Positions 7,176 through 64,000 of a stretch of DNA of 64,000 nucleotides are shown one piece after another. How positions within the stretch are numbered: position 1 is the stretch's first letter; each line of letters opens with the position of its first letter. A program made the position numbers and the translations under genes. The notes beneath the pieces are model-generated. The model was not told the origin of the DNA. It was given only the letters and a program-made list of their open reading frames with translations, and ran no database searches. The DNA comes from Eledone cirrhosa (Eukaryota), in the NCBI GenBank assembly GCA_964016885.1, contig OZ024752.1, forward strand, positions 8,680,001-8,744,000, read 5' to 3'.

Positions 7176-7862
7176 CCTCTATTTCTTTTACATGTATCTC
7201 CCTCCCTCTCTATATATCTCACTGTCTAACGTTCTCCCATGCCCTGTCATTCTCTCTCTCTCCTCCCCCTCTACATAAAACTACTTGTTTGTCTCCTCCT
7301 CCCCTTCTCTTCCTGTACCCCCGTCTCCCCCTTCTAATCTATGTTTAACCAATTCAACATTACACCAGCACAATATTCGGTCTAGGAGTGTTATCGTCCC
7401 AGGTATGTATCTTTGGTGTCTGACAGTCTGGATGTGTGAAGACGAGAGAGTGGTTCTGCTAGATAATAAGATGACTAACCGTCCCGTGAGCAGATAATAA
7501 TGTTGTTTGAGGCTGGCTGGCATTGGTCGGAGCAGACTCCTTTTCACAAAGCGTTCGTCCAGAGAACAGGAGAAAGTAAAGGAAGAGGAAAAGAAGATAT
7601 TGTTTCTACTTTGTTTTACCCATCACCTCCTCAGTTATGTTTCATGTCTTATTTTGTTTCCGGTTTCAAACACTTATCACTTTCACGTTACAAGAACCGA
7701 CATTGTTGTGTACATTTTTACGGTTGCCGTCAGCAATACAACAAAACTTCTCCTCAACCTGGAAACTCAGGAGAGAACCAACACCAAGAGAGTTTTCCTA
7801 CTGTTTCGACAGGAGGCCGCCAACTATCGTTTGACAACGGCTGCCTCACAGCACAATATCTA

Positions 7863-8499
7863 ATGTACCCATCTCGATTTGTAATACTGGTAGTGCTTAT
7901 TGCAATGACAGCTTGCAGTAGTATGGCCATGCCAGTCCAGGTTGTTGCAGCATGGTCAACCACAAGAAACTATTCAACGTACCGTAACAGCAACCCGTCC
8001 CACAGTATCTCGCAAAAGTTCACACCAGTCGAAGCATCATCACATTTATCACATCCGTTGAAATCCAATCGTTATGTGTCCGTATCAAATTCAATTTGGT
8101 CATCACTCTTAGATAAGGCTCTACCACGAAACTCATCATTTCAACACTGGTCAGTTGTTAATAAGGACGGCTTAAGGAGTAGCCAAGCGTTAGACGAGGG
8201 TAACATTCACCATATCAATTACAGGGACAAAAAACATTTATCGGAGGAAATAGATGAGGCCCTTGTTCGTAAACGTCGGTCATCTACGGAAGAAATATCA
8301 AATTCAAACATGGATGCGCTCGAACGTTTGTCACGTGTGTTTGGCATTCGGCGACTTCCGTCATCGGACAAAGTGTCACCACATTTGATCGCTCCTGAAT
8401 ATATGACACAACTTTATCAAAGTATTACAGACAGCGGAGGCCTGACAAAGGCTAATAGTCCTTACAATGCGGATATTATACGTAGCTTCCCAGACAGAG
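7863..8499 (+). CDS. ADMP: First coding exon of a BMP/TGF-beta family ligand (signal peptide + N-terminal prodomain), most similar to ADMP
   Basis: ATG at 7863 starts a hydrophobic signal peptide (MYPSRFVILVVLIAMTACSSMA). RKRR furin-type site at 8268-8279. Prodomain motif L..VFGI...APEYMTQLYQSITDSGGLTKANSPYNADIIRSFPDR, followed by a phase-1 donor AG|GTAAGT at 8499/8500, the usual intron position after 'RSF' in BMP genes. The ADMP assignment is from motif recall only. Confidence 0.75.
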
Positions 8500-12821: not shown

Positions 12822-13149
12822 TATATAGATATGTATATATATATGATAAATTGAAACAAAATGAAAACGAAATTTCATTTCTCACTCTTAGTATGGCACT
12901 TACTTAAATGTAAGTATGCATGTATACGTACATACATATATGTATACAGACGTACAGTAGCATGCACATATATATATATATATACATATATATATACATA
13001 TGCATACAGGTACACATACATATATGCACGTATCAGTTTAGCGGCGCTAACGTCGCTTTGTTCGTTTGTAAACAAACTGAACAGCCTGAATTTATGCCAT
13101 ACGGTGTTAAGGCAACCACGTCACCTTTTTGTTCAACACTGACACAGGA

Positions 13150-13192
13150 ACGATGTACTAGTTTCAAGCTTGTTAGCTATCATCAGCACCGT
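13150..13192 (-). ncRNA. Minimal type I hammerhead ribozyme, unit 1
   Basis: Minus strand ACGGTG CTGATGA TAGCTAACAAGCTT GAAA CTAG TA CATCGT: stem I, core, AGCT/AGCT stem II, palindromic stem III. Confidence 0.85.
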
Positions 13193-13615
13193 TTACCCAT
13201 CTGTCAGATAGTTGAACGTTCGAAAGTATATACTTTCCTTATGAAAATTAACGGCTGAGCAGCCTAATTTGCATATTGAGTGAGTTAAATCGGTCAGGCA
13301 TACCGAAAACGATAAATTGAAACAAAATGAAAACGAAATTTCATTTCTCACTCTTAGTATGGCACTTACTTAAATGTAAGTATGCATGTATACGTACATA
13401 CATATATGTATACAGACGTACAGTAGCATGCACATATATATATATATATACATATATATATACATATGCATACAGGTACACATACATATATGCACGTATC
13501 AGTTTAGCGGCGCTAACGTCGCTTTGTTCGTTTGTAAACAAACTGAACAGCCTGAATTTATGCCATACGGTGTTAAGGCAACCACGTCACCTTTTTGTTC
13601 AACACTGACACAGGA

Positions 13616-13658
13616 ACGATGTACTAGTTTCAAGCTTGTTAGCTATCATCAGCACCGT
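13616..13658 (-). ncRNA. Minimal hammerhead ribozyme, unit 2
   Basis: Identical to 13150-13192 (+466). Confidence 0.85.
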
Positions 13659-14081
13659 TTACCCATCTGTCAGATAGTTGAACGTTCGAAAGTATATACT
13701 TTCCTTATGAAAATTAACGGCTGAGCAGCCTAATTTGCATATTGAGTGAGTTAAATCGGTCAGGCATACCGAAAACGATAAATTGAAACAAAATGAAAAC
13801 GAAATTTCATTTCTCACTCTTAGTATGGCACTTACTTAAATGTAAGTATGCATGTATACGTACATACATATATGTATACAGACGTACAGTAGCATGCACA
13901 TATATATATATATATACATATATATATACATATGCATACAGGTACACATACATATATGCACGTATCAGTTTAGCGGCGCTAACGTCGCTTTGTTCGTTTG
14001 TAAACAAACTGAACAGCCTGAATTTATGCCATACGGTGTTAAGGCAACCACGTCACCTTTTTGTTCAACACTGACACAGGA

Positions 14082-14124
14082 ACGATGTACTAGTTTCAAG
14101 CTTGTTAGCTATCATCAGCACCGT
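14082..14124 (-). ncRNA. Minimal hammerhead ribozyme, unit 3
   Basis: Identical to 13150-13192 (+932). Confidence 0.85.
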
Positions 14125-14547
14125 TTACCCATCTGTCAGATAGTTGAACGTTCGAAAGTATATACTTTCCTTATGAAAATTAACGGCTGAGCAGCCTAAT
14201 TTGCATATTGAGTGAGTTAAATCGGTCAGGCATACCGAAAACGATAAATTGAAACAAAATGAAAACGAAATTTCATTTCTCACTCTTAGTATGGCACTTA
14301 CTTAAATGTAAGTATGCATGTATACGTACATACATATATGTATACAGACGTACAGTAGCATGCACATATATATATATATATACATATATATATACATATG
14401 CATACAGGTACACATACATATATGCACGTATCAGTTTAGCGGCGCTAACGTCGCTTTGTTCGTTTGTAAACAAACTGAACAGCCTGAATTTATGCCATAC
14501 GGTGTTAAGGCAACCACGTCACCTTTTTGTTCAACACTGACACAGGA

Positions 14548-14590
14548 ACGATGTACTAGTTTCAAGCTTGTTAGCTATCATCAGCACCGT
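14548..14590 (-). ncRNA. Minimal hammerhead ribozyme, unit 4
   Basis: Identical to 13150-13192 (+1398). Confidence 0.85.
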
Positions 14591-15026
14591 TTACCCATCT
14601 GTCAGATAGTTGAACGTTCGAAAGTATATACTTTCCTTATGAAAATTAACGGCTGCGTATGGCATAAATTCAGGCTGTTCAGTTTGTTTACAAACGAACA
14701 AAGCGACGTTAGCGCCGCTAAACGTGCATATATGTATGTGTACCTGTATGCATATGTATATATATATGTATATATATATATATATGTGCATGCTACTGTA
14801 CGTCTGTATACATATATGTATGTACGTATACATGCATACTTACATTTAAGTAAGTGCCATACTAAGAGTGAGAAATGAAATTTCGTTTTCATTTTGTTTC
14901 AATTTATCGTTTTCGGTATGCCTGACCGATTTAACTCACTCAATATGCAAATTAGGCTGCTCAGCCGTTAATTTTCATAAGGAAAGTATATACTTTCGAA
15001 CGTTCAACTATCTGACAGATGGGTAA

Positions 15027-15069
15027 ACGGTGCTGATGATAGCTAACAAGCTTAAAACTAGTACATCGT
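15027..15069 (+). ncRNA. Hammerhead in the inverted unit with a core mutation (GAAA to AAAA)
   Basis: ACGGTG CTGATGA TAGCTAACAAGCTT AAAA CTAG TA CATCGT. Confidence 0.7.
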
Positions 15070-15440
15070 TCCTGTGTCAGTGTTGAACAAAAAGGTGACG
15101 TGGTTGCCTTAACACCGTATGGCATAAATTCAGGCTGTTCAGTTTGTTTACAAACGAACAAAGCGACGTTAGCGCCGCTAAACTGATACGTGCATATATG
15201 TATGTGTACCTGTATGCATATGTATATATATATGTATATATATATATATATGTGCATGCTACTGTACGTCTGTATACATATATGTATGTACGTATACATG
15301 CATACTTACATTTATATATATATGTATATATATATATCTATATCTATATCTATATGTATATATATATATATATATATACATATATATATACATGTATATG
15401 TATATATATACATATATATATGTATATATATATATTTATA

Positions 15441-30627: not shown

Positions 30628-31264
30628 ATATATATATATATATCATATCTTATCTATTTCTATTATTTTCTCGATGAAAGCAAAGCCGATGTTAGCTTTG
30701 TCTTTGAAGTTTACGGGTTCAATAAAATATAGTACCAGTAATGCACTGGGGTTTTTTCATTGACTTTCCCCTCCCCCCAAATTGTTGGCCTTGTACCTAA
30801 ATCGGAACCCATTATTTTCCATATATAATTTCTTGCTTGCAATAATGTTATCTAAATATAAATGATATTTATATATACCCACACAGATATATATTTATAT
30901 ATAATTAATATATGCGCATATATATGCATATATATATATTTAGGTCTAGACGAAAGTCTGTCTCCAACTGGTGTTTATCTCGGTTTCGTCGTGTGAAGAC
31001 TGCCCCCCCCCCCCCGGAAAGGACGCCAGTCCATCGCAGGGCTAAACCCGTGGCTACTGCAGGTACTTATTTTCAGGTGGGTATACTGGAGTAACGTGAA
31101 ATGAAAGGTTTTTCTCAACTACACCACACACAACCCAGAAATCGAACCTACGACATTATGACCGTAAGCTCAACACCGTTACCACGAGGCCACGTGACTA
31201 TATATATACCCACACACGTAGTCCTAGCCATGCTAGTGTGGAAGATAGCCGTTAAACGATGATC

Positions 31265-31510
31265 AAAAGTAACACAGAGGAGACTGAGGTTAGCTGGACA
31301 TACTCACCGACATTCAGAGTCGACACTGCACTCAGTGCTCCTGTGGGAGCCCCTACACGGACACACTAGAAGAGGGAGACCGAGGTTGACATATATTGAT
31401 GCCCTAAAGACAGACACTCGTCTCTTGGAGGTGCAGGACACGGCGGCGACGATGAAGGACAGAGACTGCTGGAGAGAACTCGTCTATGGATCTCTGGAAT
31501 TTTACCCGCG
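31265..31510 (+). mobile_element. RTE-like LINE 3' fragment
   Basis: QRRLRLAGHTHRH...VLLWEPLHGHTRRGRPRLTYIDALK...MKDRDCWRELV. Confidence 0.75.
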
Positions 31511-31530
31511 CTCTCTCTCTCTCTCTCTCT

Positions 31531-31589
<59 letters not shown>

Positions 31590-42398: not shown

Positions 42399-42460
42399 TT
42401 TTATCTGACGAGGACGTATTGAAAAAACTGCACAGTACCTTCGAAATATATATCATAAAA
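42399..42460 (+). ncRNA. Type I hammerhead ribozyme (family C variant)
   Basis: TTTTAT CTGACGA GGACGTATTG...CAGTACCTTC GAAA TATATA TC ATAAAA. Confidence 0.75.
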
Positions 42461-42777
42461 CATATTTTTTGATTACGTGAATGTCTTCATTTCTTAATAT
42501 TCTGAATAATATATATAAAACAAAGGAATTGTGGTAAGGAACCAGATGGACTATAACGCACCAGAGTACTCAATACTTAGGGTAGTAGAGTGGGAAATAG
42601 GAAAAAATATGACCCCCACGGCAGAGCTCAAGCCGTTTCGACGAGAACAGTCCAGAAATAGCCGTCGAAACGCCTTGAGCTCTGCCGGCGGGGTCATAAT
42701 TTTCCATATATATATATATACATACATGTAAATACATCTGTACACACACACACATATAATATATATACACACATATA

Positions 42778-42816
<39 letters not shown>

Positions 42817-42861
42817 TAAACAAATAATGAATAAACAATTCCTTATATTAAACAAAAAAAG

Positions 42862-43016
42862 TTCATTATTTAACGATCGTTTCTAGGGTATATATGTGTT
42901 ATAATTGGTATGCATATTCAACAGATCTATGTACAAAATTATACAAAATTATACAAATTATCAAGATTAAATATACATACCTAACACATATATACGCCGT
43001 CTTCAGAAATAATGAA
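42862..43016 (-). ncRNA. Mirror hammerhead ribozyme in the left palindrome arm
   Basis: Reverse complement of 53271-53425. Confidence 0.8.
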
Positions 43017-43836
43017 GTATATTTATTGATAATAACAACAATTCAAAATATCAGTTCAAAATTGACCAATGAAAACACAAAGGGTTAAAAGCAGTTCGGT
43101 GTGTGTATATACATGTAAAATCCTTACACATATTTTACAATAATGTGTGTATAATTTGTATGCGCATACTAAAAAGATGGATGCAAACACAAAATTTCAA
43201 GGTTAATATCTCTGTAAGCTTAATGCGCTGATAAGATGCGCATTGATACTTATGGAGTCAAGCATATAAATATATTTTTTCATACTCACACATATCAGTA
43301 TAATCACACATACATGCGCGTATATGCATAAATATACACATAACCACGAACATACAAACACACACACTCCCCCACTCACATTTATATATGTGGATATAAA
43401 ATCATAAGCACATAGAAATTAAGTCACTCACATAAAACACTGGCACACACATTTCAAGATCAAGATACAGAAATTAGGTGGGAGGGGGGGGAGGGGTCAG
43501 TATTCAATTGTCTGAGCAGACTGCCTAATATAAATGTATCTATAAATTAAGAAAAATAAAAAAATAAAAACAATAAAATACAATAAATATAATATAATGT
43601 ACATACACATACAGATATATATACACATACATACATGTACGCGCACATAGAGATATTTACGTATACACACATACACACATACATATACAGTCATACACAC
43701 ACATACACTTACACGAACATACACATACACATATAAAAAGATATATATATACACAACACACACGCGCAACACATACACACATACACATATATATAAAAAA
43801 TAGATAATAAAGATATATATCCATATATATATATAT

Positions 43837-43897
<61 letters not shown>

Positions 43898-43986
43898 TAT
43901 ACATATACATACACATACATCTAAATATACATACACATACATACACACATACATGTACATACATGTACATACATATACGCACATCG

Positions 43987-44034
<48 letters not shown>

Positions 44035-44354
44035 TCACATAGACATAAAGATACATACACACACAACTTACATACACACGTATATATATATATATATAGA
44101 TGTACCTTCATACATAGAATTAGATATATAATCATACATACATATGCACCTACTTATACTCATATAAATAAATACATACGCTTCCATATATGTGTATATA
44201 CATAAAAAATAATACAACCTCACCAAACTCAGACATACAAATGAAAATAATAATAAAAAGGCATATGTATATACATACACACACGCATTAATAGAGATAT
44301 ATATATATACACACATACATACACATATATATATACATACACACACACATATAT

Positions 44355-44425
<71 letters not shown>

Positions 44426-44429
44426 TAGA

Positions 44430-44468
<39 letters not shown>

Positions 44469-44908
44469 ATATATATCCACACACTCATACCACCATAAAT
44501 ACACATACAAACACCCACATGTATATATATATATATATATCTATATACACACACGTATACACATATATATATATATACATACATATATATATATACACAC
44601 ACATAAAAAACAGACATGCACATATATATATATATATATATATTTCATTACTCTTATATATACACATATTATATATACATACACAACCTCACTTATACAC
44701 ATATACACATAAGTTATATTACAATAATAATAAAGAATAATATACATATATATATATACATATACATATATATATATATATATATATACATACATACATA
44801 CACATACATACATACACATAAATATATACATACATAAATACACACATACGAATAAAGACATATATTCACACATAGACACCTATATATATATATATATATA
44901 TATATATC

Positions 44909-44946
<38 letters not shown>

Positions 44947-46098
44947 CACATACACATACACACACACACACAGACACACATACACACTCACATATATATA
45001 TATATATATGTGTATGTGAGTGTGCGCACATACACATATATACACACACACATACAAACACACACAAACACATACATATGCATACGTGCACACACACACA
45101 CATATATCACATAGATACGAAGATAAACATATAAATAGAGAGACATACATATATATACACAACACACATACACATACATACATACACGCATATACATATA
45201 CATACATATATACACATATATATATATTCCTATATATACAAGCATATACATACATACACATATATACACATACATACACATATACATACAACACATTCAC
45301 ATACACATACATATATAATACATATATATACATATATATACATACATATGTATGTACAATCATATATACACACACAATCTTACATTCATATTTGCATGCT
45401 CATATATGTATTTTTATATTTAGATATAAATACCCAAACCTATATAGACACCTACCTACATATATATTCATACATAGACGCTTACAAATACAGATGATAA
45501 TAGTATGGGGGAAAGGGGGGGTTTGGAGAAGGGGATCAAAGTAAATATATGTTTCAAGAAACATATAATATTTTCCGTATCTTAATTCAATGTATGTTCT
45601 TACATATTTTCAGTGCTAGGAAATACGAAATCTATGCATCTCAAAATAAATAAGTATACCATTAATCATATGTTAACTAAACCAAAGATAGTCAACATAT
45701 TGATTTCTAAGGTGTAAATTAGTTAGGTTTATAATATTTGAAGCAGAATTTTGAAGTCAAACAGTAGTAGATTATTAATTACATTATAACTAAATTAAAG
45801 TTAATAACGTTATGGTATCAATATTAGGAGATGAATTTAGTAATAGGGAAAAGAAACCCAAATAAAAATAAAATAAAGTATTACATCGGTAGTAGCATAT
45901 AAATTATATGTTAACTAAATTAAAAATTATATATTTATTTCAATAGTATACGTTAATTAGTATATGTTAATTAGGTATACAATACATAAAGCAGATATTG
46001 TATTTCATCAATAGCATAATATAATTATATGCAAATAGAAATCAAAATTAATACGCCTACATATACATATACATACACATACACATATACATACATAT

Positions 46099-46132
<34 letters not shown>

Positions 46133-46673
46133 ATATATACATATATACACACATATACATACATACAGATACACATACACAACACACACATATACATATA
46201 CATATACATATACATATCTTTTTCAAAAAATTGCACAGAATATATTAACTAGGTATATATCCAAAACACATCCCATTCTATGATTACATGACATTCTGCA
46301 ATTCGTCTGTATAAGGATACTAATTTTAAGCAAATTAAAATTAAAGTTTTAGGTTGATTAAAACTAAAACCAAATAATAAATATATTTCCAAAATGTATA
46401 TTAATTAGGTCTATAATACTAAAAATTCTTTCTCCGTCATTGGATACATGATATTATTTTGTTATATTTTATCTGTAAAAGAATTATAATAAAAGGTTTA
46501 AATAAATTAAAATTAATCTATAAATTAAATTACTAAGTATATATTAGTAATATTTAAAGGTTTTTCACAATTTATGATTACATAATATTTTCTCATCTGT
46601 AATAAAATATTAATTAAATTAAATTTATAGGTTAACTAACATTTAAATTAAATTAATTTCTAGAATAATGTTA

Positions 46674-48176
46674 TTAATTAGGTTTATAATATTTAAATGT
46701 TTTTTTTAGTTTATGATTACACGATATAATTAATTCCTGTCGTTTATTTAATAAGATATCCTTAGACTTCATTATTTCAAATAGTTCTTGGGAACATAAT
46801 CTACATTCCTTTCTATTATTTTGATAAGGGGTGGCTCTTTTGAGCACACTCCAGGTCAAATCATATTTTATATTCTTATTTTTATAACTATTGATTTTTT
46901 CTGCTAGAGATGTTGTATTAGCCAGTGCGGCATTTTTAAAACTATGTTTGTGGGTATTAAACCTTGTCTTAAAATTGTTAGAGGTAGCTCCTATATATGA
47001 GCAAATAGAATCTTTAGTTTTAACATTACATTTATAGACTATGTTGTTAACAAGACAATTCCCTTTTAATGGGCAGTTTGTTTTGTTTCTACAGTTACAT
47101 CCTTTCGTTAATTCTGTATTTGAGGAGATATTATTGTTAATTTGATGTACTGGTGGTATACTTATGGTTTTCTTACATTTATATGCATTATATGCACTTA
47201 TATTTTGTTTTATGTTATTTGTTGTAGAGTATGAGAATTTAACTGTAGACCTATTTAAGATTTGATGGTATTTGTGGTTTGGCGGGAAGTTTTTCTCAAG
47301 GATATAAAAAAATTTTTTAGCAATATTATCCTTAACTTGTAAATTAAAAGGAGCATTATACCAAGTAACTCGTCTATTACGGTTTCTATGTTGTTTATTA
47401 TTTTTATTATTTTTATAGGTTGTATCATGATTTTTACTAGGAGGATTAATGTTAATGATCTCACCACAACTATTTTTAGTTATATTTGTAGATTTAGGTG
47501 TTTTATCTTTTTTATTAGGAGTTTTATTATTAATATTTATTATAGTTGTATGATGAGTAGTTTTTTGAGGGTTACTATACTTTATATTAGAAGATTTAGT
47601 ATTTTGGGGTATATTGTGGGTGGCATTTAGGTGTGTACTTTTCATTTGGTGTTTGTTGGTAATATTATGCTGTATGCTTTCAGTATTTTTAGTAGAAGGT
47701 ATATACTCTAATCTATTTTTGTGGCCACTTCTATCTAGAGCTTCATTATAAAAGGTCGCATTTTTATCAAATACATCTTGGTTAGAAGAAAGGTTAGAAA
47801 TTCTAAGTGATATATTATATGCAAGGTTTTTAAGGATAGATTTAGGGTGATTAGACTGTGAGTGTATGTAATGTAAGTTTTGGTTAGGTTTATGGTAAGG
47901 TTGGTATATACCCGTAGCTAAATCTAAAGTTATATCTAGGAAATTTACTACTTTACTTGTTTTTTCAAAAGTAATATTAAGATTATAATAGTCTTTAAGG
48001 AAAGTTCTAATATGTTTTTTGTTTTTTTCGATTTCTGAAAGGCTAAGGTTGTTAGAAAGAAGAAGACAGTCATCACGATATAAACCACCTTTGAGGTGGG
48101 GAAAAGAGGCATTTATGTTGAAAAGGAGAAAGAGGCCCACAAGATCAGTAATTTGGGCGGAATCGCTTGAACCCAT
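46674..48176 (-). CDS. Mirror copy of the truncated PLE RT/GIY-YIG ORF
   Basis: Identical 500-aa translation on the minus strand, symmetric about 48182.5. Confidence 0.92.
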   Translation of the reverse strand: MGSSDSAQITDLVGLFLLFNINASFPHLKGGLYRDDCLLLSNNLSLSEIEKNKKHIRTFLKDYYNLNITFEKTSKVVNFLDITLDLATGIYQPYHKPNQNLHYIHSQSNHPKSILKNLAYNISLRISNLSSNQDVFDKNATFYNEALDRSGHKNRLEYIPSTKNTESIQHNITNKHQMKSTHLNATHNIPQNTKSSNIKYSNPQKTTHHTTIININNKTPNKKDKTPKSTNITKNSCGEIININPPSKNHDTTYKNNKNNKQHRNRNRRVTWYNAPFNLQVKDNIAKKFFYILEKNFPPNHKYHQILNRSTVKFSYSTTNNIKQNISAYNAYKCKKTISIPPVHQINNNISSNTELTKGCNCRNKTNCPLKGNCLVNNIVYKCNVKTKDSICSYIGATSNNFKTRFNTHKHSFKNAALANTTSLAEKINSYKNKNIKYDLTWSVLKRATPYQNNRKECRLCSQELFEIMKSKDILLNKRQELIISCNHKLKKTFKYYKPN

Positions 48177-48188
48177 AGTTATATTACT

Positions 48189-49691
48189 ATGGGTTCAAGC
48201 GATTCCGCCCAAATTACTGATCTTGTGGGCCTCTTTCTCCTTTTCAACATAAATGCCTCTTTTCCCCACCTCAAAGGTGGTTTATATCGTGATGACTGTC
48301 TTCTTCTTTCTAACAACCTTAGCCTTTCAGAAATCGAAAAAAACAAAAAACATATTAGAACTTTCCTTAAAGACTATTATAATCTTAATATTACTTTTGA
48401 AAAAACAAGTAAAGTAGTAAATTTCCTAGATATAACTTTAGATTTAGCTACGGGTATATACCAACCTTACCATAAACCTAACCAAAACTTACATTACATA
48501 CACTCACAGTCTAATCACCCTAAATCTATCCTTAAAAACCTTGCATATAATATATCACTTAGAATTTCTAACCTTTCTTCTAACCAAGATGTATTTGATA
48601 AAAATGCGACCTTTTATAATGAAGCTCTAGATAGAAGTGGCCACAAAAATAGATTAGAGTATATACCTTCTACTAAAAATACTGAAAGCATACAGCATAA
48701 TATTACCAACAAACACCAAATGAAAAGTACACACCTAAATGCCACCCACAATATACCCCAAAATACTAAATCTTCTAATATAAAGTATAGTAACCCTCAA
48801 AAAACTACTCATCATACAACTATAATAAATATTAATAATAAAACTCCTAATAAAAAAGATAAAACACCTAAATCTACAAATATAACTAAAAATAGTTGTG
48901 GTGAGATCATTAACATTAATCCTCCTAGTAAAAATCATGATACAACCTATAAAAATAATAAAAATAATAAACAACATAGAAACCGTAATAGACGAGTTAC
49001 TTGGTATAATGCTCCTTTTAATTTACAAGTTAAGGATAATATTGCTAAAAAATTTTTTTATATCCTTGAGAAAAACTTCCCGCCAAACCACAAATACCAT
49101 CAAATCTTAAATAGGTCTACAGTTAAATTCTCATACTCTACAACAAATAACATAAAACAAAATATAAGTGCATATAATGCATATAAATGTAAGAAAACCA
49201 TAAGTATACCACCAGTACATCAAATTAACAATAATATCTCCTCAAATACAGAATTAACGAAAGGATGTAACTGTAGAAACAAAACAAACTGCCCATTAAA
49301 AGGGAATTGTCTTGTTAACAACATAGTCTATAAATGTAATGTTAAAACTAAAGATTCTATTTGCTCATATATAGGAGCTACCTCTAACAATTTTAAGACA
49401 AGGTTTAATACCCACAAACATAGTTTTAAAAATGCCGCACTGGCTAATACAACATCTCTAGCAGAAAAAATCAATAGTTATAAAAATAAGAATATAAAAT
49501 ATGATTTGACCTGGAGTGTGCTCAAAAGAGCCACCCCTTATCAAAATAATAGAAAGGAATGTAGATTATGTTCCCAAGAACTATTTGAAATAATGAAGTC
49601 TAAGGATATCTTATTAAATAAACGACAGGAATTAATTATATCGTGTAATCATAAACTAAAAAAAACATTTAAATATTATAAACCTAATTAA
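48189..49691 (+). CDS. PLE ORF, 5'-truncated: C-terminal RT, thumb, Cys-rich linker, GIY-YIG endonuclease
   Basis: Starts at the internal RT 'MGS' motif. Contains YRDD, FLDITL, CNCRNKTNCPLKGNC (Neptune-type Zn finger), IVY...YIG...R...H and CxxCxxE...LN..E. Confidence 0.92.
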   Translation: MGSSDSAQITDLVGLFLLFNINASFPHLKGGLYRDDCLLLSNNLSLSEIEKNKKHIRTFLKDYYNLNITFEKTSKVVNFLDITLDLATGIYQPYHKPNQNLHYIHSQSNHPKSILKNLAYNISLRISNLSSNQDVFDKNATFYNEALDRSGHKNRLEYIPSTKNTESIQHNITNKHQMKSTHLNATHNIPQNTKSSNIKYSNPQKTTHHTTIININNKTPNKKDKTPKSTNITKNSCGEIININPPSKNHDTTYKNNKNNKQHRNRNRRVTWYNAPFNLQVKDNIAKKFFYILEKNFPPNHKYHQILNRSTVKFSYSTTNNIKQNISAYNAYKCKKTISIPPVHQINNNISSNTELTKGCNCRNKTNCPLKGNCLVNNIVYKCNVKTKDSICSYIGATSNNFKTRFNTHKHSFKNAALANTTSLAEKINSYKNKNIKYDLTWSVLKRATPYQNNRKECRLCSQELFEIMKSKDILLNKRQELIISCNHKLKKTFKYYKPN

Positions 49692-50232
49692 TAACATTAT
49701 TCTAGAAATTAATTTAATTTAAATGTTAGTTAACCTATAAATTTAATTTAATTAATATTTTATTACAGATGAGAAAATATTATGTAATCATAAATTGTGA
49801 AAAACCTTTAAATATTACTAATATATACTTAGTAATTTAATTTATAGATTAATTTTAATTTATTTAAACCTTTTATTATAATTCTTTTACAGATAAAATA
49901 TAACAAAATAATATCATGTATCCAATGACGGAGAAAGAATTTTTAGTATTATAGACCTAATTAATATACATTTTGGAAATATATTTATTATTTGGTTTTA
50001 GTTTTAATCAACCTAAAACTTTAATTTTAATTTGCTTAAAATTAGTATCCTTATACAGACGAATTGCAGAATGTCATGTAATCATAGAATGGGATGTGTT
50101 TTGGATATATACCTAGTTAATATATTCTGTGCAATTTTTTGAAAAAGATATGTATATGTATATGTATATGTATATGTGTGTGTTGTGTATGTGTATCTGT
50201 ATGTATGTATATGTGTGTATATATGTATATAT

Positions 50233-50266
<34 letters not shown>

Positions 50267-51418
50267 ATATGTATGTATATGTGTATGTGTATGTATATGT
50301 ATATGTAGGCGTATTAATTTTGATTTCTATTTGCATATAATTATATTATGCTATTGATGAAATACAATATCTGCTTTATGTATTGTATACCTAATTAACA
50401 TATACTAATTAACGTATACTATTGAAATAAATATATAATTTTTAATTTAGTTAACATATAATTTATATGCTACTACCGATGTAATACTTTATTTTATTTT
50501 TATTTGGGTTTCTTTTCCCTATTACTAAATTCATCTCCTAATATTGATACCATAACGTTATTAACTTTAATTTAGTTATAATGTAATTAATAATCTACTA
50601 CTGTTTGACTTCAAAATTCTGCTTCAAATATTATAAACCTAACTAATTTACACCTTAGAAATCAATATGTTGACTATCTTTGGTTTAGTTAACATATGAT
50701 TAATGGTATACTTATTTATTTTGAGATGCATAGATTTCGTATTTCCTAGCACTGAAAATATGTAAGAACATACATTGAATTAAGATACGGAAAATATTAT
50801 ATGTTTCTTGAAACATATATTTACTTTGATCCCCTTCTCCAAACCCCCCCTTTCCCCCATACTATTATCATCTGTATTTGTAAGCGTCTATGTATGAATA
50901 TATATGTAGGTAGGTGTCTATATAGGTTTGGGTATTTATATCTAAATATAAAAATACATATATGAGCATGCAAATATGAATGTAAGATTGTGTGTGTATA
51001 TATGATTGTACATACATATGTATGTATATATATGTATATATATGTATTATATATGTATGTGTATGTGAATGTGTTGTATGTATATGTGTATGTATGTGTA
51101 TATATGTGTATGTATGTATATGCTTGTATATATAGGAATATATATATATGTGTATATATGTATGTATATGTATATGCGTGTATGTATGTATGTGTATGTG
51201 TGTTGTGTATATATATGTATGTCTCTCTATTTATATGTTTATCTTCGTATCTATGTGATATATGTGTGTGTGTGTGCACGTATGCATATGTATGTGTTTG
51301 TGTGTGTTTGTATGTGTGTGTGTATATATGTGTATGTGCGCACACTCACATACACATATATATATATATATATGTGAGTGTGTATGTGTGTCTGTGTGTG
51401 TGTGTGTATGTGTATGTG

Positions 51419-51456
<38 letters not shown>

Positions 51457-51835
51457 GATATATATATATATATATATATATATAGGTGTCTATGTGTGAA
51501 TATATGTCTTTATTCGTATGTGTGTATTTATGTATGTATATATTTATGTGTATGTATGTATGTGTATGTATGTATGTATATATATATATATATATATGTA
51601 TATGTATATATATATATGTATATTATTCTTTATTATTATTGTAATATAACTTATGTGTATATGTGTATAAGTGAGGTTGTGTATGTATATATAATATGTG
51701 TATATATAAGAGTAATGAAATATATATATATATATATATATGTGTATACGTGTGTGTATATAGATATATATATATATATATACATGTGGGTGTTTGTATG
51801 TGTATTTATGGTGGTATGAGTGTGTGGATATATAT

Positions 51836-51874
<39 letters not shown>

Positions 51875-51878
51875 TCTA

Positions 51879-51939
<61 letters not shown>

Positions 51940-52259
51940 ATATATGTGTGTGTGTATGTATATATATATGTGTATGTATGTGTGTATATATATATATCTC
52001 TATTAATGCGTGTGTGTATGTATATACATATGCCTTTTTATTATTATTTTCATTTGTATGTCTGAGTTTGGTGAGGTTGTATTATTTTTTATGTATATAC
52101 ACATATATGGAAGCGTATGTATTTATTTATATGAGTATAAGTAGGTGCATATGTATGTATGATTATATATCTAATTCTATGTATGAAGGTACATCTATAT
52201 ATATATATATATACGTGTGTATGTAAGTTGTGTGTGTATGTATCTTTATGTCTATGTGA

Positions 52260-52307
<48 letters not shown>

Positions 52308-52396
52308 CGATGTGCGTATATGTATGTACATGTATGTACATGTATGTGTGTATGTATGTGTATGTATATTTAGATGTATGTGTATGTATATGTATA

Positions 52397-52451
<55 letters not shown>

Positions 52452-53270
52452 ATATATATATATATGGATATATATCTTTATTATCTATTTTTTATATATA
52501 TGTGTATGTGTGTATGTGTTGCGCGTGTGTGTTGTGTATATATATATCTTTTTATATGTGTATGTGTATGTTCGTGTAAGTGTATGTGTGTGTATGACTG
52601 TATATGTATGTGTGTATGTGTGTATGCGTAAATATCTCTATGTGCGCGTACATGTATGTATGTGTATATATATCTGTATGTGTATGTACATTATATTATA
52701 TTTATTGTATTTTATTGTTTTTATTTTTTTATTTTTCTTAATTTATAGATACATTTATATTAGGCAGTCTGCTCAGACAATTGAATACTGACCCCTCCCC
52801 CCCTCCCACCTAATTTCTGTATCTTGATCTTGAAATGTGTGTGCCAGTGTTTTATGTGAGTGACTTAATTTCTATGTGCTTATGATTTTATATCCACATA
52901 TATAAATGTGAGTGGGGGAGTGTGTGTGTTTGTATGTTCGTGGTTATGTGTATATTTATGCATATACGCGCATGTATGTGTGATTATACTGATATGTGTG
53001 AGTATGAAAAAATATATTTATATGCTTGACTCCATAAGTATCAATGCGCATCTTATCAGCGCATTAAGCTTACAGAGATATTAACCTTGAAATTTTGTGT
53101 TTGCATCCATCTTTTTAGTATGCGCATACAAATTATACACACATTATTGTAAAATATGTGTAAGGATTTTACATGTATATACACACACCGAACTGCTTTT
53201 AACCCTTTGTGTTTTCATTGGTCAATTTTGAACTGATATTTTGAATTGTTGTTATTATCAATAAATATAC

Positions 53271-53425
53271 TTCATTATTTCTGAAGACGGCGTATATATG
53301 TGTTAGGTATGTATATTTAATCTTGATAATTTGTATAATTTTGTATAATTTTGTACATAGATCTGTTGAATATGCATACCAATTATAACACATATATACC
53401 CTAGAAACGATCGTTAAATAATGAA
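53271..53425 (+). ncRNA. Type I hammerhead ribozyme in the PLE 3' pLTR region (long stem II)
   Basis: Stem I TTCATTATTT/AAATAATGAA, core CTGAAGA, ~115-nt stem II region (GTATATATGTGTTA/TAACACATATATAC), GAAA, palindromic CGATCG, then TT. Confidence 0.8.
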
Positions 53426-53610
53426 CTTTTTTTGTTTAATATAAGGAATTGTTTATTCATTATTTGTTTAATATTTTATCTTGACTCTGTATACCGTTTA
53501 TCTTTCACCGAAAGTGGATTTTCATTACATCTCTTCTTTCCATGATATCCGGAATACATTGAGTTCTTCATACGGATTGGACACTACCGTAAACTCTTGG
53601 TAGATTTATC

Positions 53611-53701
<91 letters not shown>

Positions 53702-53767
53702 GTATATATATATATATACATGTATATATATATATATATACATGTATATATATATATATATATATAC

Positions 53768-53827
<60 letters not shown>

Positions 53828-53829
53828 CA

Positions 53830-55670
<1,841 letters not shown>

Positions 55671-58591: not shown

Positions 58592-59737
58592 TGTATGTAT
58601 GTATTATGTTCCTCTGATTTTATAATTTCACATATTTTTGCTGTTCCATTAATGGATTGTACTTGTAATTTCCTAACTAGTTGTGTTCTCTTTGTTCCTG
58701 TTAAGCCGAGCTTCTCAAGATTTGTATGTATGTATGTATGTATGTATGTATGTATGTATGTATGTATGTATGTATGTATGTATGTATGTATGCATGTATG
58801 CATGTATGTATGTATGTATGTATGTATGTATGTATGCATGTATGTATGTATGCATGTATGTATGTATGTATGCATGTATGTATGTATGTATGTATGTATG
58901 CATGTATGCATGTATGTATGTATGTATGCATGTATGCATGTATGTATGCATGTATGTATGTATGTATGCATGTATGCATGTATGTATGCATGTATGTATG
59001 TATGTATGTATGTATGTATGTATGTATGCATGTATGTATGTATGTATGCATGTATGTATGCATGCATGTATGTATGTATGTATGTATGTATGTATGCATG
59101 TATGTATGTATGCATGTATGTATGTATGTATGTATGTATGTATGTATGCATGCATGTATGTATGTATGTATGTATGTATGTATGTATGTATGCATGTATG
59201 CATGTATGTATGTATGTATGTATGTATGTATGTATGCATGTATGCATGTATGTATGTATGTATGCATGTATGCATGTATGTATGTATGTATGTATGTATG
59301 TATGTATGCATGTATGTATGTATGTATGTATGTATGCATGTATGTATGTTTGTATGTATGCATGTATGTATGTATGTATGTATGTATGCATGCATGTATG
59401 TATGTATGTATGTATGTATGTATGTATGTATGTATGTATGTATGCATGTATGTATGTATGTATGTATGTATGTATGTATGCATGTATGCATGTATGTATG
59501 TATGTATGTATGTATGTATGTATGCATGTATGTATGTATGTATGTATGCATATATGCATGTATGTATGTATGTATGCATGTATGTATGTATGTATGTATG
59601 TATGTATGTATGTATGTATGTATGTATGCATGTATGTATGTATGTATGTATGCATGTATGTATGTATGTATGTATGTATGCATGTATGTATGTATGTATG
59701 TATGTATGTATGTATGTATGTATGTATGTATGTATGC

Positions 59738-59768
<31 letters not shown>

Positions 59769-61077
59769 TGCATGCATGTATGTATGTATGTATGTATGTA
59801 TGTATGTATGTATGCATGTATGTATGTATGTATGTATGTATGCATGTATGTATGTATGTATGTATGTATGCATGTATGTATGTATGTATGTATGTATGCA
59901 TGTATGTATGTATGTATGCATGTATGCATGTATGTATGTATGTATGTATGTATGTATGTATGCATGTATGCATGCATGTATGCATGTATGTATGTATGTA
60001 TGTATGTATGTATGTATGCATGTATGCATGTATGTATGTATGTATGTATGTATGCATGTATGTATGTATGTATGTATGTATGCATGTATGCATGTATGTA
60101 TGTATGTATGCATGTATGCATGTATGTATGTATGTATGTATGTATGTATGTATGTATGTATGTATGCATGTATGTATGTATGTATGTATGTATGTATGTA
60201 TGCATGTATGTATGTATGTATGTATGTATGTATGCATGTATGTATGTATGTATGTATGTATGTATGTATGTATGTATGTATGTATGTATGTATGCATGTA
60301 TGCATGCATGTATGCATGTATGCATGTATGTATGTATGTATGTATGTATGCATGTATGTATGTATGTATGTATGTATGCATGTATGTATGTATGTATGTA
60401 TGTATGTATGCATGTATGTATATATGTATGTATGTATGCATGTATGTATGTATGTATGTATGTATGTATGTATGCATGCATGCATGTATGCATGTATGTA
60501 TGTATGTATGCATGTATGTATGTATGTATGTATGTATGTATGCATGTATGTATGTATGTATGTATGTATGTATGTATGTATGTATGCATGTATGTATGTA
60601 TGTATGTATGTATGTATGTATGTATGTATGTATGCATGTATGTATGTATGTATGTATGCATGTATGTATGTATGTATGCATGTATGCATGTATGTATGTA
60701 TGTATGCATGTATGTATGTATGTATGTATGTATGTATGTATGTATGTATGCATGTATGCATGCATGTATGCATGTATGCATGTATGTATGTATGTATGTA
60801 TGCATGTATGTATGTATGTATGCATGTATGTATGTATGCATGTATGTATGTATGTATGTATGCATGTATGCATGTATGCATGTATGCATGTATGCATGTA
60901 TGTATGTATGTATGTATGTATGCATGTATGTATGTATGTATGTATGTATGCATGTATGCATGTATGCATGTATGTATGTATGCATGTATGCATGTATGTA
61001 TGTATGCATGTATGTATGAATGTATGTATGTATGCATGTATGTATGTATGTATGTATGTATGTATGTATGTATGTAT
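58427..61077. repeat. (TATG)n/(CATG) tetranucleotide array, ~2.6 kb
   Basis: Direct reading. Source of the spurious 700-900 aa ORFs. Confidence 0.95.
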
Positions 61078-61524
61078 AAATAAGAGTCTCCTGCAGTTTT
61101 CTTCTATGAAATTCCCCTCACAAGTCTTTGTTCAACTCTAAGCTCTAGTAAAAGTCCCTTGACCTCGATGCCGTGTATTGGGATTGATCCTAGATTCATG
61201 TGGTTGTAAAGTGAACTCCTTAACCCTTTTGGCAGGTCTCGCCTATCAATGAGGAAGATTTTGCAAGATTGCTGAATCCGCAAATCATGTTGAGATCCAA
61301 CTTATAGATATTTTACACTACTTCTGACTATTTTCCCTTTGAGCACAGCGTGGGTGAATATTGCCCGTACCGTCTACACTCCCTCTACAGAAGCTGCGGC
61401 TCGTTTCCTTCGCCTCCCTAGAAATTACTACGTAATATAATACATACATACACACATACGTACCTACATACATACATATATATATACGTACGTACATACA
61501 TACATACATACATACATACATACA

Positions 61525-62955: not shown

Positions 62956-64000
62956 ACTTATGCTGTGCCAATTCTAACGCCAACATTTGGCCTGCTGAAC
63001 TGGTCATTGCAAGAACTAAGTGAGATGGATGTTAGAACTCGCAAACTTCTCAGTGTTACTGGGAACTTTAACATCAATGGTGATGTGGATAGGCTATACT
63101 TCTCACGCAAGGAAGGTGGCCGGGGTCTAAAATGCATATTAACAACATATGAGACCCGGATACTAACACTGAAGCAACACCTTCAACAGAGGAAAAGGTT
63201 GGCAACCATCTTGCCCAGGTTTATGAGCATGAAAAAAAAATCATTAGAATAGCGACTGATCTGGAGGAGAGATATGGAATAAAGCCTGATATAAATCTCT
63301 CACCCAGAGAAATCGGAAGATCCTATTCAATGTTCAAACAAGATGAAAAAATTGACCAATTTACAGAAAAAGTTGTGCATGGATACTTGAGACGTAAAAC
63401 ACAGACCATAGAGGGGATAAACCACTCAAAAAGCCTAGCATGGAGTTCCGACAAGTTTATGACATCACACCTTGAGGGATATCTCTATGCAATACAGGAA
63501 CAAGAACTCCCTACCAAATATCTGCTGCACAAAAGGGGAGGGCCAGCAGCTGACAATAAATGTAGGCTATGTAAAACAAAGATCGAGGATGTAAGCCACA
63601 TTGTTGCCAGCTGCGAAAGAATGTCATCTCGCTACTACCTCCCCATGAGACACGATGGGATAGCTAGAACCATCTGGAACGCACTTCGGAAAACAAAATT
63701 AACAACAAACGAGGAAGAATATATTGAGACAGATGGCACTAAGGAATACTGGTGGAACCTGAAAATAAAAAACTGCCACCAAATTAAAGCACAACCGGCC
63801 TGATATTGTAGTTTGGGACCACACATTGAAAACGTGTTCTGTTGTGGAGATCAGCTGCCCACTTGATGTAAACGTTGTCAGAAAAATACAGGAGAAGGAG
63901 GACATCTACGGACCATTGATGAGGAGTTTACAAATCCAGTATCCAAGATACACCTTTAGCTTCATACCCATCATTATTGGAGCTACGGGTTATATACCAA
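62956..64000 (+). mobile_element. R4/Dong-like non-LTR retrotransposon (RT C-terminus, CCHC finger, RLE endonuclease); 5'-truncated, frameshifted, runs off the window
   Basis: YAVPIL...W...MDVRTRKLL...DVDRLYFSRKEGGRGL, AIQEQ..TKY, CRLC...E...SHIVASC, RHD, RPDIVVWD..VEISCP. Frameshifts near 63200-63240 and 63770. Adjacent to a (TACA)n tract. Confidence 0.85.

Follow-up and report, generated by a model that had tools for sequence, protein, structure and literature searches.

A multi-kilobase palindrome in the Eledone cirrhosa genome: a 5'-truncated Hydra-type Penelope-like element probably mirrored at insertion by twin priming

A near-perfect palindrome of 10.8 kb was analyzed in a 64,000-nt stretch of Eledone cirrhosa DNA (contig OZ024752.1, here C12; C12:8,680,001-8,744,000 of the 3.0-Gb assembly), which is called the window. 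It is probably one very young insertion of a 5'-truncated Penelope-like element (PLE), assigned to the Hydra clade, which entered a (TA)n repeat and was mirrored at the moment of insertion by twin priming. An earlier note, made from the sequence alone, had described the palindrome, and its presence in the assembly was confirmed, with arms at 42809-48179 and 48186-53478. A natural complete copy of the element (L071:2937-9549) was used as reference, and U numbers are positions in this copy. It contains 6,613 nt, composed of a 155-nt 5' untranslated region (UTR), an open reading frame (ORF) of 813 aa and a microsatellite-rich 3' UTR of 4,016 nt. The features of the palindrome, in window positions, were as follows.

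42779-42808: (TA)n target repeat on the left, adjoining the left arm
42809-48179 (5,371 nt), minus strand: left arm, truncated Hydra-type PLE from U1092 to the short end at U6477
42862-43016, minus strand: hammerhead-like motif of the left arm, core at 43006
43662: sole substitution between the arms, pairing with 52626; left allele derived, right allele found in 7/7 other arms scored
44578-44636: 59-nt segment between two TA runs, missing from the right arm only
46674-48179, minus strand: left ORF remnant, aa 313-813 of 813, with the C-terminal part of the reverse transcriptase (RT), YRDD, Asn-rich linker, CxCx5C and the GIY-YIG endonuclease
48180-48185: axis TATATT, in which 48181-48185 are element positions U1087-1091 and 48180 is one non-native base
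48186-53478 (5,293 nt), plus strand: right arm, ending at the short-end position
48186-49691, plus strand: right ORF remnant, same sequence as aa 312-813 of the intact copy (100% identity)
49692-53478, plus strand: 3' UTR of the right arm, rich in microsatellites, as far as the short-end position
53271-53425, plus strand: type I hammerhead-like motif of the right arm, core at 53281, predicted GUU cut after 53415
53274, plus strand: turning point U6274, the likely RNA 5' end
53479-53614 (136 nt), plus strand: one-sided tail, U6478-6613, present on the right side only
53615-53977: (TA)n-rich target repeat on the right, adjoining the tail

The two sides were aligned outward from the mirror axis, which lies between 48182 and 48183. 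A single mismatch (48180/48185) was found beside the axis, followed by unbroken arm pairing over about 3.4 kb; this inner part is identical in both arms, and the differences are confined to the outer part. Because the intact element reads G-ATATT-ACTATGGG at this position, 48181-48185 are element sequence. ATAT, in the centre, is self-complementary, and 48180 is the sole departure from a perfect palindrome. TATATT had been taken for a 6-nt spacer, which was not borne out, since five of its six bases belong to the element and include an ATAT overlap. Both outer ends of the palindrome adjoin (TA)n, which would mask any target-site duplication; the DNA beyond them is unrelated and the flanks are not mirrored; the AT at the short end is common to the element and the target repeat. 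The arms begin at U1087-1092 (aa 312-313) and the N-terminal ~310 aa, which we take to include RT motif A, are missing, in agreement with the 5' truncation that had been proposed. No working RT can be encoded by the window copy, and nothing points to a function for the host.

Six differences were found between the arms, one substitution and five indels. The substitution had been located exactly, and the variation in microsatellite length was also verified: the (TA)n runs are shorter on the right arm by 2, 10 and 6 nt, and the C-run at 43491 has one C fewer. A loss of about 50 bp had been placed near 44585-44630 of the right side; the loss is real, with a size of 59 nt and limits at 44578-44636, and a segment of 57-65 nt is kept at this site in all other arms that span it. 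Similarly, the extra tail of the right arm was found to measure 136 nt, one more than had been estimated, and in tandem copies it runs directly into U1, i.e. the 5' UTR and ORF start. The six differences are presumably copying errors, later slips or consensus errors. A near-perfect inverted repeat of 5.3 kb cannot have arisen by chance. With one substitution in 5.3 kb, and a range of 0-6 among the 11 two-arm loci compared, the window copy is among the youngest of these loci. A template switch, which had been read from the identical inner 3.4 kb and the variable outer 1.9 kb, was dropped as an explanation because differences at 10 other two-arm loci, selected for ORF identity, also lie mostly in the microsatellite-rich UTR.

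The evidence that carries the twin-priming reading came from the other copies of the family. A search of the genome with part of the ORF gave 2,428 candidates, and the 40 scored contained 44 matches, spread over 32 sites and each with an identity of about 100%. Among these sites 29 were mapped (C1692, C1230 and C562 were left out). All 21 inverted loci with both ends seen, the window included, carry one short end (U6474-6479) and one tail end (U6612-6613); one end of C1:93.17 was taken from the exact junction pattern search. The remaining mapped sites comprised four single-armed copies (three tail, one short) and four with an end unfetched or off the contig. Copies with other axes and the same outer ends, which had been suggested as a check, therefore exist, and the palindrome is not unique: inverted copies are a routine product of this PLE family. 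Exact junctions with (TA)n numbered 4,330 for the tail end and 1,568 for the short end genome-wide, and reversed-pattern controls gave 0. An unselected region (C1, 0-99.6 Mb) contained 100 tail and 33 short ends. These made up 24 pairs that face head to head within 20 kb, of which 23 were short plus tail (binomial P 1.5e-6 at 0.5), including two that are also among the 21 mapped loci, and 6/23 span at least 10.7 kb. The lone tail-tail pair maps as two separate stubs (L117/L118). An older subfamily (L101-L120), with the ORF about 96% and the UTR about 85-88% identical to the reference unit, has the same two ends.

Both window arms share 324G, 3899A and 4522G (arm coordinates), unlike every other arm covering those sites, and locus-private alleles common to both arms were found at every multi-arm locus tabulated. 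This speaks for a single donor and a single event, as the proposal of a single integration had it. At five of the 21 loci (C19, C10, C1:335.2, C1:24.29 and C1476) the short-ended arm exceeds the tail arm in length without containing it, and in the stubs L094 and L099 the arms do not overlap at all. Since neither arm could be copied from the other at these loci, a second priming exists in this PLE family.

Short palindromes gave a view of the turning point. In a genome pattern search, 769 near-symmetric stub palindromes, about 540 bp long where mapped, turn at about U6274 (U6271-6276), on the 5' strand of hammerhead helix I, and a non-native G or short fillers are frequent at the turn. Three control sites in the ORF gave 0, 1 and 0 palindromes. 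The window-axis site has 2 palindrome loci including the window, and a third, C2:215.38, lies 24 nt away. Among the first 50 stubs listed, a count by eye gave 14 whose axes form perfect palindromes on TA/AT with zero spacer, and 9-13 with a non-native G before A6274. At other long loci, exact axes fall on TA and TTTAAA. Of 24 long junctions from a sample chosen by its ORF, 5 lie within 62 nt of symmetric. The control searches, extrapolated roughly from one match in three sites, suggest tens of long near-symmetric copies in the genome. Some copies showed further rearrangement: L105 (C1:69.86 Mb) is a stub with both arms ending at U6169, whose axis is interrupted by some 7.1 kb of other sequence, perhaps a second insertion into the centre of the palindrome; L037/L038 and L090 have local duplications or A-run expansions near U2777-2794, where L090 (C532) also has an extra internal inversion.

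A sequence of steps can be proposed for twin priming. The RT/GIY-YIG protein would nick both strands of (TA)n, and each target 3' end would prime inside the RNA, one per start site, at sites 136 nt apart, aided by 2-3 nt of AT microhomology. Both complementary DNAs (cDNAs) would halt at one place, in the window probably a broken RNA end at ~U1087 and in the 769 stubs the RNA 5' end at U6274. The cDNA 3' ends might then anneal via ATAT and extend on each other before repair. The simplest account of the stubs is that two cDNAs run off one RNA end and anneal through self-complementary bases, and the window axis fits it by the native ATAT overlap and the odd base at 48180. Zero-spacer axes favour end-to-end annealing, as they are hard for hairpin priming and easy for annealing.

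Several observations weigh against this reading. Near-symmetric junctions (5/24) are commoner than independent stops predict, so a shared broken RNA end or fold-back is needed, and the shared broken end at ~U1087 is assumed. The tail arm of the window copy is longer by 5 nt, which is compatible with a tail-side fold-back. The non-native G before U6274 is what a copied cap would give and favours the reading, but it was counted by eye. Four public read runs carry fixed differences from the assembly and come from relatives; they are uninformative on the axis. (One opposite-strand joint in 3 restriction-site-associated DNA reads of relatives was too weak and was unused.) In PMC11167929, the in vitro assays of the Poseidon element of Anolis (PAc), which belongs to a different clade, showed no start-site difference between strands. 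Self-priming has been proposed for PLE junction palindromes (PMC3846280).

The fold-back alternative, in which a tail-primed cDNA ran to U1087, snapped back, copied itself and joined the target end at U6477, is considered unlikely. The inner ends nearly coincide at the window, C2:215.38, C22:4.91, C957, C3:21.79 and C1:49.91, an imperfect inverted repeat, native to the element, is used at the junction of C2:215.38, and the identical inner 3.4 kb together with the 5-nt longer reach of the tail arm is what such copying could leave. On the other side, fold-back is unable to build 5/21 sister loci or the stubs whose arms do not overlap, the fixed stop at U6477 does not follow from it alone, axes without a loop are common, and the native hairpin at the window axis is no stronger than shuffles (z -0.03). 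The earlier note had left fold-back and two primings side by side; the family data favoured two primings and made fold-back the less favoured of the two. The window axis was also considered as a fold-back hotspot, which the data did not show (2 loci against 0, 1 and 0 at controls; local hairpin z -0.03).

It is very improbable that the palindrome is an artefact, whether from a chimeric fold-back read or from mis-joining across the repeat. Arms identical over 3.4 kb around the axis and 2,428 candidate near-identical copies would invite such an error, and such structures trouble assemblies (PMC8557442). A fold-back read would mirror the flank, whereas the mirror halts exactly at the two family-defined ends without extension into it; moreover, the one-sided tail has counterparts at 20 other loci, a derived change of its own is present in each arm, and host exons lie in order on one strand on either side. 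Equally remote is an origin of the mirror image in two separate insertions or in later recombination or gene conversion: copies do pile up in (TA)n with tandem and nested arrangements, and palindrome arms can be homogenised, but no (TA)n or host DNA lies at the axis, the pairing of short with tail ends is strict, and alleles private to the locus are shared between the arms wherever a multi-arm locus was tabulated.

Twin priming may be built into PLE integration in general, in a coupled, asymmetric form in which a dimer working on a single RNA allots each nicked target strand to its own start site, every two-armed insertion gets one tail, and run-off of both copies at one RNA end produces the long perfect palindromes; we regard this wider proposal as evenly poised. 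The Anolis PLE protein is a predicted dimer, and in vitro it cleaves and extends both strands, with two internal start sites bounding the tail (PMC11167929). PAc thus resembles the window element in its AT-rich target, in the cutting and extension of both strands and in two start sites that bound the tail, and differs in clade and in having its start sites in the ORF, which here lie upstream of the ATG (PMC11167929). The layout published for endonuclease-positive (EN+) PLEs, in which a 5'-truncated copy is inverted and the tail is one-sided (PMC8557442 Fig. 2 legend; PMC3846280), shares with the window the head-to-head orientation of the arms, partial tandems, a tail at only one end and palindromic junctions. 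The tail in that layout is 30-40 nt in contrast to 136 nt here; here both arms are multi-kilobase and nearly equal, and the rule of one short and one tail end was counted.

In L1 twin priming, two target 3' ends prime on the element RNA, which gives an inversion joined by microhomology; the two segments do not overlap and start from the poly(A) end and from an arbitrary internal site. Unlike this, each arm here begins at a fixed site close to the 3' end, and the two arms overlap. In the literature searched, which covered sources other than subscription journals and Repbase, no description of this PLE family or of PLE twin priming was found.

The element had been labelled Neptune-type, and this label was replaced. 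By its motifs and by eye comparison with published alignment rows it is a Hydra-clade PLE, not Neptune. According to PMC8557442, the Hydra clade is marked by RWK, DKT and CxCx5C, by CxxC and CxH around E and N residues that are conserved, by the loss of the CCHH motif and by (TA)n targets, and the Neptune clade by DKG, Cx2-5CxxC and CCHH. The single ORF, 813 aa in L071, contains YRDD (346) and VY..YIG..R..H (694-722), i.e. RT and, at the C-terminal end, a GIY-YIG domain. Conservation was scored in an alignment of 117 relatives, with the fusion protein P0238 left out. RWR at 37-39 corresponds to RWK (K in 52 and R in 35 of the 97 rows with a residue), and DKT lies at 115-117 (T in 90/108 relatives). 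The linker motif CxCx5C reads CNCRNKTNC (673-681), and C673, C675 and C681 are kept in 105/106, 97/104 and 102/103 rows. CRLC (771-774) and CNH (799-801) flank the conserved E and N and supply CxxC and CxH, the columns of which are kept in 96/97, 95/97, 96/96 and 97/97 rows. The outer ends of the mapped loci adjoin (TA)n, as expected from the clade's target preference.

None of the three Neptune features was found. The VY-YIG cysteines 696 and 705 are nine apart and unconserved, with C in 3/103 rows at 696 and not among the commonest residues at 705, and 737-740 contain no second His, so the CCHH pattern of the zinc finger is lacking; DKG is absent from the whole ORF, and the linker is not Cx2-5CxxC. 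The likeness to Neptune-clade PLEs is limited to the C-terminal GIY-YIG, a Cys-rich linker and microsatellite targeting. The RT blocks match, by eye, the Hydra-1_Obim rows and not the Neptune rows in the supplement of PMC8557442. Pfam returned no family for the 500-aa ORF remnant. Over full length, identity to the best database protein reaches only 40%, and the element is therefore a distinct family. Compared with Hydra-clade PLEs, it shares a single ORF, RT plus C-terminal GIY-YIG, RW[K/R], DKT, CxCx5C, CxxC, CxH and the lack of CCHH. It differs in its 6,613-nt unit, tail size, 4-kb microsatellite-rich 3' UTR and ~110-aa Asn-rich stretch (aa 471-580, 21% N), and also in its ~115-nt helix II, extra bases before G12 and clear pseudo-long-terminal-repeat (pLTR) tandems. 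Hydra-1_Obim, which prefers (TA)n, has 2,507 bp, and Hydra-clade elements are generally shorter than 3 kb (PMC8557442), a size that the present unit exceeds and that, being given as general, is not diagnostic. N-rich inserts resembling the Asn-rich stretch occur in Adineta PLEs (PMC3846280).

Each arm carries a putative hammerhead ribozyme. The motif runs through helix I, a CUGAAGA core, a helix II of ~115 nt, GAAA, the palindromic ACGAUCGU and GUU. The fold of 53271-53425 had a minimum free energy of -48.8 kcal/mol (z -7.35), and 0/200 shuffles were as stable. The core bases and the three-helix fold are present; the long helix II and 1-2 extra nt before G12 are non-canonical. No hammerhead family was among 150 of the 164 Rfam result rows, which held only hairpin and microsatellite matches below the gathering score, and the copies of the motif are too alike for covariation. 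Invariance of the core in 102 copies was discarded as ribozyme evidence because the argument is circular, the search pattern having selected for the core. For PLE hammerheads, a helix III that is short and palindromic and one additional base following position 9 have been described (PMC4209133), and a CUGAAGA core with a GUU site is likewise listed for Hydra-1_Obim (PMC8557442).

The palindrome sits within the limits of an ADMP-like TGF-beta gene, downstream of its exon 1, and its location within a gene, as first described, was upheld.

7644-8498, plus strand: first coding exon of the ADMP-like TGF-beta gene, matching aa 1-280 of P0002
C12:8860739-8860891 and 8862904-8863773: later exons of the gene, matching aa 331-620 of P0002

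The exon for aa 281-330 of P0002 was not found in the window or within 10 kb on either side, and Pfam gave no family for the host exon; the best matches of the gene are octopod proteins. If the intron is transcribed, the arms would form a 5.3-kb duplex, which would probably also sequester the hammerhead. An effect of double-stranded RNA (dsRNA) or editing on the ADMP-like gene is speculation, and the genome holds hundreds of similar potential dsRNA substrates.

Other repeats were observed around the palindrome. Insertions stack at (TA)n in the left flank, which has a hammerhead-like core at 42405 and a ~190-bp repeat that itself contains an inverted repeat (42509-42709; 5,103 genome candidates). 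Among 40 scored of these 5,103 candidates, no second 100% match to the left flank and no empty allele were seen, which is a weak test. To the right of the palindrome's (TA)n, 260-bp inverted repeats (54039-54298 and 55267-55525, 97%) enclose an interior of about 1 kb and possibly form a non-autonomous DNA element. At 12845-15399, a 466-bp unit is repeated 3.9 times in perfect tandem, each with a minus-strand hammerhead core, followed by an inverted copy (94-98%); it resembles a non-coding insertion of PLE type or retrozyme type, in which the tandem-plus-inverted layout recurs. The whole window contains 23 loose hammerhead-core matches with several facing pairs (2834/2848, 17834/17987), many of which are probably PLE stubs of other families and some due to chance. 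Fragments of non-long-terminal-repeat retrotransposons lie at 63153-63803 (zf-RVT, E 4.7e-7) and, judged by eye and with no Pfam match, at 31263-31550. A degenerate (CATA)n/(TATG)n satellite of about 2.4 kb (58700-61100) yields long spurious ORFs.

The locus is an ordinary product of a known class, as inverted copies and the one-sided tail were already published. The steps after PLE priming still await validation according to PMC11167929. The countable end rule, the sharp turning point at U6274 and the intact donors make twin priming testable against fold-back, and the counted end rule is the part that specialists could use. The Hydra clade is extended to a 6.6-kb, very abundant family. If the asymmetric scheme is true, about 770 stub palindromes and tens of multi-kilobase ones in this genome would be its products, many of them intronic sources of long dsRNA. 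These results also show that multi-kilobase near-perfect palindromes can persist, at least briefly, in an animal genome.

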